Assembly: GCF_009931435.1 (NCBI RefSeq)
Contig: NZ_CP043414.1
Length of the DNA stretch: 64,000 nucleotides
Direction: 5' to 3' (one strand)
From: Escherichia coli
GTDB taxonomy: Bacteria; Pseudomonadota; Gammaproteobacteria; Enterobacterales; Enterobacteriaceae
Shown here: positions 1-3,000 of the stretch, piece after piece
How the letters are laid out: every line of letters begins with the position of its first letter
Position numbering within the stretch: the stretch's first letter is position 1
Position numbers: made by a program

Positions 1-3000
1 GCCGTGTTGAATCAACACTTTGCGCTCGACAGACCCTTGCAGGATAAAGATCGCCTTAATCGTGATGTTAAAGTGCGAATTGCCGAAAAAGCGGCCAGTT
101 TTGTCAAAGATGGCGATACATTAATTATCGATTCTGGTTCAACGACCACGCTAATTCCCGCTTCGCTCAAAGGGCGTCGGGATTTAGTCGTCATGACGAA
201 TGCCTTGAATATCGCCTGGGAAATGGCCAGTTTTGAACGGGTGGATGTTATGATCCTTGGTGGAAATGTTCGCCAGAGCGTCTACTCCCTGTATGGGCCT
301 TCGGCAGAACAACAACTCCGGCAGTATCGCTTTGATAAGCTGTTTTTGGGCGTGGACGGCTTTTGCCTTGAAGCAGGGATTACCACACCACATCCGGGTG
401 AGGCACATCTGAACCAGGTGATGTGCCAGGTTGCGCAGGAAATTACTGTTGTCGCGGACTCCAGTAAATTTGGCCGCAAAAGCTTCTGTATGATCGGTGA
501 AGTGAGCGAGATAGATCGACTGATTACCGATAGCGGTATTCCGGAGAATTACAAAGCAGCATTAACGCAAATGGGTGTGGAAGTTGTGATTGCTGATGAG
601 TGAGAAAATGTGGCTGGAGATAAACGTCGCCAGCCACATTACGTTATTCAGGTTGCAAGTTCGATTTGCAGCAACGCCGCGCCTCGTACACCGCTCGTTG
701 CTCCGTGAATCGCAGAAAATACGCGCGCAGGTTCCAGTCCAGGAAGAAGATAACGCGTCATAGCTTTCGGCAATAACGTGTAAATTTCTTTGAAGTTAGA
801 CACACCGCCGCCAAGAACAAATGCATCTACGTCGAGAATATGCTGCAACTGTGCCAGCGTACAACCAACCATATCTATCCAGGCGCTAATGGTGGTGATG
901 GCACTGGGAACGCCACGTTGATGATTTTCTAACAATGTCTCCATAGTGATTTGCTCACCGCTGAAATGCTTATGTAACCAGAGCAAGCCAGGACCGGACT
1001 GGTAGCGTTCCAGGCACCCTTGCAAACCGCAGCCGCATTGTAATTCAGGCAGGTTATAGCGCCGCGTAAATGTCGCCGGGAGCGGTAAATGGCCAAACTC
1101 GCAGGCCATACGGTTACGGCCACGGTACAACTGGCCATCAATAACTAATCCCCCGCCCATACCCGTGCCGATAATCGCGCCAAAGATCCGACTATATTGA
1201 CGAGCTTGATCGGTATGCGCTTCTGATAGGGCGAAGCAGCAGCAGTCATTATCCATTATTACCGGGCGGTTAAGGCGATTTGCCAGATCGGTTAACACCT
1301 GGCGTCCGGTCAGGCAGGGAACGTTAGAAGACAACAGTTTACCGGTGTGCCGATCCATAACGCCGGGCATCCCGATACCTATTTTGCCTTGCGTACCCGT
1401 GGCCCAGTCAGCGGTATCAATCAGAGACACAAATGTGGATAGAAAAAGCGCGTAATCCTGAACAGGCGTAGCTACCCGCTTGCGCCAGCAAATTTGTAAA
1501 TCCTGATCAAAGGCGACTATCTCTGTTTTGGTTCCACCAATATCAACACCGTAAAACATCGCTCATCTCCTTTGGTTTCACAGCACAACCAGGGTATTTT
1601 CCTTGCGAGCGCGTTCGGCGGCAAAGACCATTAAATGACTTTCGAGCGATTCATCTGGTCCTGAAAGGATCATCGCTCGATCGTCAGCCATCACGGCATG
1701 GATAAAGCTGTCCATCAGATAGTAATCACCACCACCGTGCCCTCCCATTTGGGTGTGAGTGCCTGCGTTTTTCTCTTCAACGGTGTAAATAGTTTCCTGG
1801 TCGGTGAGAAAATCAAAACACCGAATGGTGTTGCCATCGCCTTCCAGATAACCTTTCGAACCGAAAACTCGGGTTTTGCGATCCTCCATTTTCGTAAAGG
1901 CTGTCATTGTAAAAGTGACGCTCTGCTGATGCGCAAACTGCATGTTTACCACTTGATGATCAACAACATCGTTATCGCAGCAATAAACACAGCGACCATA
2001 GGGGCCGTCACGCAGGGCCTGACGAATATTCTCTTCAGTAGGATTTGGTGTTAACACGTGGCGAAAGTGAAACGTACATTTATGGGCTTCGCCAGCATAA
2101 ATTTTGCATGCGGACCACGGGCAGGTCGCTTCTGCCTGGCAATCGAGACAGCGTTCGGCTGCGCCTTCAGGTTGGTTTTGTTTTACAAAATGGTTGAGCC
2201 CGCCAAATGAGCTAACGGTTTTACAGTTGTCTCCCATGATGTAGCGGATCCAGTCCAGATCGTGGCAGGACTTTTGTAACAACATAAATGATGATTCAGC
2301 CTCGTTGCGCCAGTTACCACGCACAAAAGAGTGTGCCTGGTGCCAGTAACCGACGGGTTCGAGATGCTGCATACTGATAATGTCGCCAATGATGCCGCTG
2401 TCGAGTAAGGATTTGAGTTTTTGTGTATATCGGGTGTAACGAAGAACGTGTGCGACGGCTAATAAGACATTATTGCGTTTGACGGCATCAATGATAATGC
2501 GGCAATCGTGCTCTGTTGGCGCGAGCGGTTTTTCCAACAGAATGTGATAACCGAGATCGGCAAAAGCGACGGCCGGATCTCTATGCATATTGTCTTGCGT
2601 ACAAATAAGTACAGCATCAGCCATTTTTGGCCGAGCAGCAGCCTCTTTCCAGTTGCTAAAAATATTATCTGTCGGGATCGTATGCCGGGACACAACTTGC
2701 TCGCGGTAAGCCTCTCTAGGTTCAGCAACACCTACCACTTGCATTCTGTCCGGATGCTCAAGGGCATAGCGGGAATATATTTCTCCACGTGCGCCTGCAC
2801 CTATTACTAAAACAGTGACTTTATTTTTACTCATATAAAGAAATACCTTTCTGATAAATTCATCTTAATTGCTACGTTATAAATTACGAAAACTAACAAG
2901 ATGAAATCCGTGTTTTTCAATCGCATATTTGAGTGACGGTGTAGTCAGAACCGTAAGTTCTTCCAGCCGTTGATAGCAGTAACTGCTCGACATTAAGTGG

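Follow-up and report, generated by a model that had tools for sequence, protein, structure and literature searches.

Escherichia coli AgaR is a DeoR-family protein of 269 residues that represses the aga operon for N-acetylgalactosamine (GalNAc) and galactosamine (GalN), and its gene heads the aga cluster, transcribed divergently from kbaZ. In Photorhabdus, Providencia, Edwardsiella, Serratia and Cedecea, a different AgaR is the only one present, and its gene heads or adjoins agaS/kbaZ/kbaY. The chbBCARFG operon of E. coli, the third system of interest here, encodes the EIIB, EIIC and EIIA proteins of a phosphotransferase system (PTS), the AraC-type regulator ChbR, the glycosidase ChbF and the chitin disaccharide deacetylase ChbG. 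We analysed a 64,000-nt stretch of E. coli contig NZ_CP043414.1 (RefSeq assembly GCF_009931435.1), called the window, which begins inside a DeoR-type regulator gene facing an operon with chb-like PTS genes. By sequence comparison, this edge gene is an AgaR-type paralog and not the agaR ortholog. It encodes a second AgaR-type repressor within a 7.8-kb accessory segment and is most likely the dedicated repressor of the convergent six-gene operon, a reading that we hold with good confidence.

Frame 1 of the window is free of stop codons up to the TGA at 601-603 and encodes 200 residues, which scored 177 bits against the Pfam DeoRC model and were identical, with no differences, to the C-terminus of WP_105287720.1. 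The full-length gene for this 256-aa protein was found at positions 14833-15603 of a 38-kb locus from strain R32_14_1F (L001). Its true ATG (L001:14833, window -167) is 168 nt left of the window edge, and regulator residues 1-56 therefore fall outside the window. A GTG start at position 4 in the open reading frame (ORF) list was rejected as an artefact of the window edge, since the real ATG sits further upstream. The HTH_DeoR domain (residues 7-61), itself outside the window, scored 63 bits on the full-length L001 gene, which encodes the identical protein. The edge regulator has the DeoR/GlpR architecture of an N-terminal HTH_DeoR and a C-terminal DeoRC domain, as does E. coli AgaR, and the recognition helices of the two proteins are nearly identical (GVSSVTIRNDL in the edge regulator, GVSTVTIRNDL in AgaR).

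The initial annotation offered two outcomes for this gene, to be decided by alignment to AgaR: either it is the agaR ortholog and the PTS operon has no dedicated regulator, or it is another gene and the island extends further left with its own repressor. The edge regulator was 44% identical to E. coli AgaR by BLASTP and 42-43% identical in the alignment matrix, against 86-88% for the AgaR orthologs of Citrobacter and Pluralibacter. It also lacks the N-terminal extension of AgaR. On the E. coli AgaR equivalog model NF007316 (PRK09802; cut-off 351) the edge regulator scored 271.5 bits and failed, while true AgaR scored 577. On the broad AgaR model NF040755 (cut-off 260), the edge regulator scored 365.3 bits with full-length coverage and passed. 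The alignment thus speaks against orthology and leaves the protein AgaR-type in the broad sense. Because the edge gene passes NF040755, PGAP and UniRef label both adjacent genes AgaR. The RefSeq/PGAP annotation of L001 calls both neighbours agaR (L001:13491-14300 and 14833-15603), which can mislead automated ortholog calls.

In R32_14_1F, the true agaR (WP_000072187.1) lies 532 bp upstream of the edge gene. The order agaR, 532-bp spacer, regulator, operon and garD was also found in three further assemblies (L004-L006) encoding the identical protein, and RMDEC465 matches R32_14_1F across the agaR-regulator interval. The upstream layout was taken from these five concordant, near-identical genomes (99.3-99.4% DNA identity, identical protein), none of which is the window's own genome. 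No convincing ORF was found in the 532-bp spacer. The position divergent from kbaZ is occupied by WP_000072187 in R32_14_1F, strain GF4-3 and L004-L006, and not by the edge gene. The second outcome is the one borne out: agaR is a separate gene, and the island reaches about 580 bp beyond the left edge of the window, with the regulator inside it and repression by that regulator probable.

The closest relatives of the edge regulator were found in Citrobacter (91% identity), Pluralibacter lignolyticus (86%) and Photorhabdus (76%), followed by Edwardsiella (71%), Serratia (63-65%) and Vibrio (52-55%). An identity matrix and a neighbour-joining tree separated two AgaR clades that are 42-43% identical to each other. 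One holds the E. coli-type AgaR proteins of E. coli, Citrobacter and Pluralibacter, which are 86-88% alike. The island regulator falls in the other, the NF040755 clade, with the proteins of Photorhabdus, Providencia, Edwardsiella, Serratia and Cedecea (64-77% identical to the edge regulator). Regulators of the second clade occur in aga gene clusters of Photorhabdus, Serratia, Cedecea, Edwardsiella and metagenome-assembled genomes; the Photorhabdus homolog heads an aga operon of kbaZ, agaS, EIIB, EIIC, EIID, EIIA and kbaY genes. Unlike these proteins, the edge regulator is encoded in addition to an E. coli-type AgaR, and its gene adjoins an operon without tagatose-pathway genes. It differs from E. 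coli AgaR in lying downstream of the real agaR and in being linked to ROK, Gfo/Idh/MocA and transporter genes, not to kbaZ-agaVWEF.

This linkage is conserved. Related loci were collected by a scan with the Gfo/Idh/MocA (Gfo) protein, one genome per species, and by local tblastn. In four Citrobacter loci, the regulator, ROK and Gfo genes precede those for an ATP-binding cassette (ABC) transporter of an ATPase, two permeases and a substrate-binding protein (SBP); the module lies between agaR and garD in three of them, and no garD was found in the fourth (L014). The same ABC-type module adjoins agaR in Pluralibacter and garD in Escherichia sp. MOD1-EC7003, where the contig ends just left of the regulator and the agaR side is unseen. 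In Cedecea, two metagenome-assembled Enterobacterales and Serratia, the order is SBP, permease, permease, ATPase, Gfo and ROK, then a single AgaR-type regulator that is followed by kbaZ (Cedecea and both assembled genomes) or agaS-kbaY (Serratia). The Serratia locus (L053:63-12076) combines a GH123-family gene, the ABC transporter, Gfo, ROK, the AgaR-type regulator, agaS and kbaY in one cluster, an arrangement that ties the ROK/Gfo module to GalNAc catabolism. A regulator of this clade adjoins ROK and Gfo in every Enterobacterales locus found, whether PTS or ABC and with or without an E. coli-type AgaR. Searches of the available literature returned nothing on this island or on the ROK/Gfo module.

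From its left edge up to window 2835-2839, at the Gfo start codon, the island is homologous to the ABC-type loci at the DNA level; homology is then lost and resumes at 6956 (window 2835-6955 compared with L007:13041-17276 and L015:4668-8894). Because homology breaks and returns at these points and the region upstream of the operon is conserved, the intervening DNA is best read as a cassette that took the place of the ABC genes behind an unchanged promoter. The PTS island of the initial annotation is a mosaic, and PTS-specific DNA is confined to the cassette. The cassette keeps chbB-, chbC-, chbF- and chbG-like genes in chb order, with EIIB and the family 4 glycoside hydrolase (GH4) both about 75% identical to their E. 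coli counterparts and EIIC and the ChbG-like gene passing curated models (Table 1). It differs from chbBCARFG in having neither chbA (EIIA) nor chbR, in the DeoR type of the adjacent regulator, and in standing behind a foreign promoter and being followed by the Gfo and ROK genes; the gaps between its genes are too small for EIIA or an AraC-type regulator. Its GC content is 37-45%, compared with 48-51% for the regulator, ROK and Gfo genes. The nearest relatives of the GH4 protein were 79-80% identical and located in ordinary chbBCARFG operons, and no donor of the cassette was found. No ABC-type locus was found in complete E. coli genomes.

Table 1. Features of the regulator, the convergent operon and the adjoining DNA (window positions unless marked L001)
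Feature	Position	Strand	Basis or remark
Regulator promoter	~L001:14750 (~window -250)		Upstream of the window
DeoR/AgaR-type regulator, 3' 603 nt (residues 57-256 and TGA)	1-603	+	Whole DeoRC sensor domain included
Hairpin, probable bidirectional terminator with weak U tract	607-640	both	Folding; position conserved in orthologous loci
ROK-family sugar kinase, NagK-like, last operon gene	648-1559	-	Pfam ROK, 203 bits
Gfo/Idh/MocA oxidoreductase, 418 aa	1578-2834	-	Family models; core of module with ROK and regulator
chb-derived PTS cassette	2835-6955	-	Replaces SBP, two permeases and ATPase of related loci
ChbG-like deacetylase	2877-3635	-	Passes chitin disaccharide deacetylase (ChbG) model
GH4 6-phospho-glycosidase	3648-5000	-	Family match; 75% identity to E. 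coli ChbF
EIIC	5078-6439	-	Passes ChbC model
EIIB	6509-6826	-	~75% identity to E. coli ChbB (PDB 1H9C), hand count from alignment
Cassette leader, ~130 nt	Upstream of EIIB, within 2835-6955	-	
Operon regulatory region	6956-7259	-	Seven-locus alignment; conserved in PTS-type and ABC-type loci of four genera
Promoter TTGACA-17-GATTAT	7003-6975	-	Promoter scan
Operator-like block CTTTTCATT..GAAAC..ACCGAAAG	7079-7045		Seven-locus alignment
T-rich block	7158-7146		Conserved
CRP-like site	7184-7199		1 mismatch to pattern, conserved
Hairpin by garD stop codon	7212-7244		
garD, core gene; stop codon is right island junction	7260-8831	-	Homology with island-free E. coli

Candidate operators were sought in front of both the regulator and the operon. 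Ray and Larson are said to have described, in 2004, a 24-nt operator consensus for E. coli AgaR. The 24-nt consensus recovered all five aga promoter sites. Its 15-nt core CTTTCRTTTYRTTTY gave 16 matches with up to two mismatches in the 38 kb of L001, where 0.8 were expected, and these cluster at the agaS and kbaZ/agaR promoters. One match with a single mismatch falls in the edge regulator's own promoter (L001:14769-14783), just after a conserved TGATGTAAT and about 50 nt before the ATG. L003, L007, L008, L012 and L015 share this site, with one mismatch in each except L008, which has two. The core in the Photorhabdus AgaR promoter is identical to that of the E. coli kbaZ operator. In four genera, further CTTTC and GAAAG blocks are conserved ahead of the regulator as well as ahead of the operon promoter. 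CRP-like sites with one mismatch to TGTGA-N6-TCACA were also observed at L001:14540-14555 and in the operon regulatory region, both conserved in orthologous loci; they are far out, about 190-290 bp upstream of the regulator ATG and the operon promoter. The CRP pattern was not enriched overall (15 matches, 15 expected), so that only the conservation of these two sites counts.

The segment is rare. When window 1-8000 was compared by megablast with 5426 complete E. coli genomes, window 1-7259 was present in three, namely R32_14_1F and RMDEC465 (99.3% identity) and GF4-3 (92.5%); the others match garD only. The island measures 7.84 kb (L001:14420-22259). On the left, R32_14_1F shares with the ordinary, island-free strain NY1601 (L002) collinear DNA that includes agaR with its terminator and extends to GGCGGGCATTGT at L001:14346. 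About 72-84 bp (L001:14336-14419 compared with L002:5845-5928) then match the DNA just upstream of prlF at 93%, and island-specific DNA begins at L001:14420 (window -580), the same point at which homology to the MOD1-EC7003 locus starts. On the right, homology to island-free E. coli begins at the garD stop codon. Its sporadic presence and its sharp junctions in conserved core DNA are as expected of a horizontally acquired genomic island. The island differs from R32_14_1F at 25 of 7259 nt, and 28 differences were counted within window 7001-8000. Differences are clustered at 7359-7728 (in garD) and 10636-10729, mostly with multiples-of-three spacing, and these clusters in core genes adjoining the island look like recombination tracts.

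According to the initial annotation, the PTS operon would have replaced prlF-yhaV exactly, and this did not hold. The order in GF4-3 is agaR, yhaV (a pseudogene with an internal stop), prlF, island and garD. Because GF4-3 carries the island and the toxin-antitoxin pair together, the island is placed between prlF and garD and did not displace the pair; the lineage of the window also keeps about 72 bp of prlF upstream DNA. In this lineage, prlF-yhaV is absent through an 811-bp gap (L002:5045-5855, L001:14336-14346) with an imperfect repeat at its ends (GCGGGCATTGT and GCGGGCATGAT), and the right-hand copy includes the prlF start codon. We infer a microhomology-mediated deletion; the loss of the pair was an event separate from the island. 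The first ~72 nt of the island (L001:14420-14491, window -580 to -509) show a weak likeness to the garD-terminator spacer in strains without the island (TTTTGCGAGG..TTCCAAA), with an alignment score of 10 compared with 4.1 +/- 1.9 for shuffled sequences, of which 8 in 1000 reached 10. Because of this likeness, the original insertion point may have been directly at the garD stop codon.

A dedicated repressor is suggested by the linkage of the regulator to the adjacent operon and by the conserved operator-like sites, and several observations weigh against it. The upstream arrangement of the window's own genome is read from close relatives that are 99.3% identical. With up to three mismatches, the 24-nt AgaR consensus matched no site in the island regulatory DNA, and a strict claim of shared operators was dropped in favour of the 15-nt core; that core was not enriched in the window (28 matches, 25 expected). 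The operon-side site at 7045-7059 has three mismatches, its one support being conservation across the seven loci. The regulator promoter failed a simple sigma-70 scan. The regulator is convergent with the operon and not divergent, so a promoter region is not shared. The substrate and effector assignments are guesses. The same operator core seems to serve both AgaR clades, so resident AgaR might act on the island as well, or the island regulator on the aga genes; cross-talk between the two is a real possibility. It is conceivable, and in our judgement unlikely, that the chief role of the paralog is in the aga (GalNAc/GalN) regulon, as its second regulator, or that it is redundant with AgaR, and that the operon is mostly under another regulator, for example resident AgaR, NagC or CRP. 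The core CTTTCGTTTTGTTTC common to both clades, the almost identical recognition helix and the distance of about 1.3 kb between the paralog and the aga promoters agree with this, as do Cedecea, Serratia and the two metagenome-assembled genomes, in which one regulator between ABC-Gfo-ROK and agaS/kbaZ/kbaY would serve both. However, where an E. coli-type AgaR exists (E. coli, Citrobacter and Pluralibacter), the paralog stays with the ROK-Gfo-transporter genes, and both island regulatory regions have their own conserved CTTTC-type blocks. That the edge gene is the agaR ortholog itself, with a PTS operon that has no regulator of its own and sits exactly at the prlF-yhaV site, is extremely improbable. 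A DeoR-family gene adjoining the aga/gar region, a pass on NF040755 and the name transcriptional repressor AgaR in PGAP and UniRef would fit, but a separate WP_000072187 stands upstream in every near-identical genome, the identity to AgaR is 44%, compared with 86-88% for genuine orthologs, and GF4-3 has both the island and prlF-yhaV.

The segment may, instead of being a recent insertion, be an old resident of the agaR-garD interval in Escherichia and Citrobacter that most E. coli have lost, the PTS form being a later local exchange; we regard this as possible but doubtful. The ABC version is found in the agaR-garD slot in Citrobacter and, as far as the garD side goes, in MOD1-EC7003, and it adjoins agaR in Pluralibacter. 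Identity to Citrobacter is similar in the module (76-77%) and in the flanks (78-83%), and no integrase or other mobility gene, tRNA target or perfect flanking repeat was annotated or visible in the agaR-garD interval. Set against this are the three carriers among 5426 complete E. coli genomes, none with the ABC form, the comparison with cryptic Escherichia, in which the module is 80% identical but the adjacent garD 94%, and the lower GC of the PTS cassette.

The regulator (+) and the ROK gene (-) are convergent, as annotated initially, and are separated by 44 nt. A stable, GC-rich stem-loop stands in this gap, directly 3' of both stop codons. It was first described as a perfect hairpin terminator shared by both genes. 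The perfect stem was confirmed, with 11 bp (607-617 with 630-640), an inner 3-bp stem and a loop of 12 nt, and its action as a terminator is probable, although the U tract is weak. The predicted folding energies are -27.9 kcal/mol on the plus strand and -20.8 kcal/mol on the minus strand (z -6.5 and -4.9, respectively), and none of 200 shuffled sequences was as stable. The plus-strand RNA continues after the stem with ACGUUAUUC, which has no U run, and the RNA on the ROK side (minus strand) with UUUUCUC, which has four U, two of these within the stem. Each of the five orthologous loci examined has a hairpin in this gap, among them GF4-3, Escherichia sp. MOD1-EC7003, Citrobacter and Pluralibacter, and T runs adjoin it in the MOD1-EC7003 and Citrobacter orthologs. 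A consensus terminator scan of the window did not call the hairpin, because the 12-nt loop exceeds the limit of the scan.

The ROK kinase scored 306 bits on the NagK model, under the cut-off of 380, and its best solved relatives are the NagK proteins 7P7I, 2AP1 and 4DB3. Rfam gave only a match below threshold, to a fluoride riboswitch within the ROK coding sequence (1233-1293, minus strand); it scored 21.5 bits where the gathering score is 34 and was rejected as almost certainly due to chance. The AlphaFold model of the Gfo protein has a mean confidence (pLDDT) of 87.5, and its fold matches are generic, at 13-19% identity. Sequence and fold searches returned YjhC/NanOx, NAD-dependent glycosidases and levoglucosan dehydrogenase. 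A metal site is suggested by an inserted segment of the Gfo protein with cysteines (C229, C232, C238, C282 and C190) that are invariant in 32 homologs of proteobacterial, Lentisphaerae and Firmicutes origin. The PTS-specific leader contains a perfect palindrome, TGCCATTCATGGCA (6865-6878), and an AT-rich palindrome around TTACGTAA (~6836-6860), just upstream of the EIIB ribosome-binding site. These palindromes could be a protein site or an RNA structure brought in with the cassette.

In the proposed mechanism, the regulator would bind CTTTC-repeat operators in its own promoter, causing autorepression, and would also bind upstream of the operon promoter and repress the operon. A sugar phosphate from the pathway, probably an N-acetylhexosamine or hexosamine phosphate, would release it, and the CRP-like sites suggest catabolite control. 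The chb-derived EIIB and EIIC would import a chitobiose-like beta-disaccharide with an EIIA from another locus, presumably the resident chb operon (ChbA). The ChbG-like deacetylase and the GH4 enzyme would then deacetylate and cleave the imported sugar, and the ROK kinase would phosphorylate the sugar set free by cleavage. Speculatively, the chb-like cassette hints at a beta-linked N-acetylhexosamine disaccharide as substrate, and the association of Gfo with aga genes and a GH123-family gene in other genera hints at a GalNAc-related glycoside.

A broader picture can be put forward tentatively, and we think it somewhat doubtful. The regulator, promoter, ROK and Gfo would form a fixed chassis for swapped uptake cassettes (an ABC transporter or, in rare E. 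coli, the chb-derived PTS with deacetylase and GH4) that feeds an uncharacterised GalNAc-related glycoside into the aga pathway. The second AgaR would share operators with resident AgaR and so cross-talk with it, and the Gfo protein, whose cysteine cluster is invariant, would carry out a new reaction.

What stands out in an otherwise ordinary and modest result is the exchange of cassettes and the pairing of two AgaR paralogs. Its main value is for annotation, since public records give the name AgaR to two neighbouring genes of which one alone encodes the repressor of the aga operon. The locus also offers a clean natural exchange of a transporter cassette, from ABC to PTS, behind what appear to be an unchanged promoter, operator and repressor, and it may serve as a simple system in which to ask how two paralogous repressors whose recognition helices are nearly the same prevent cross-talk or make use of it.

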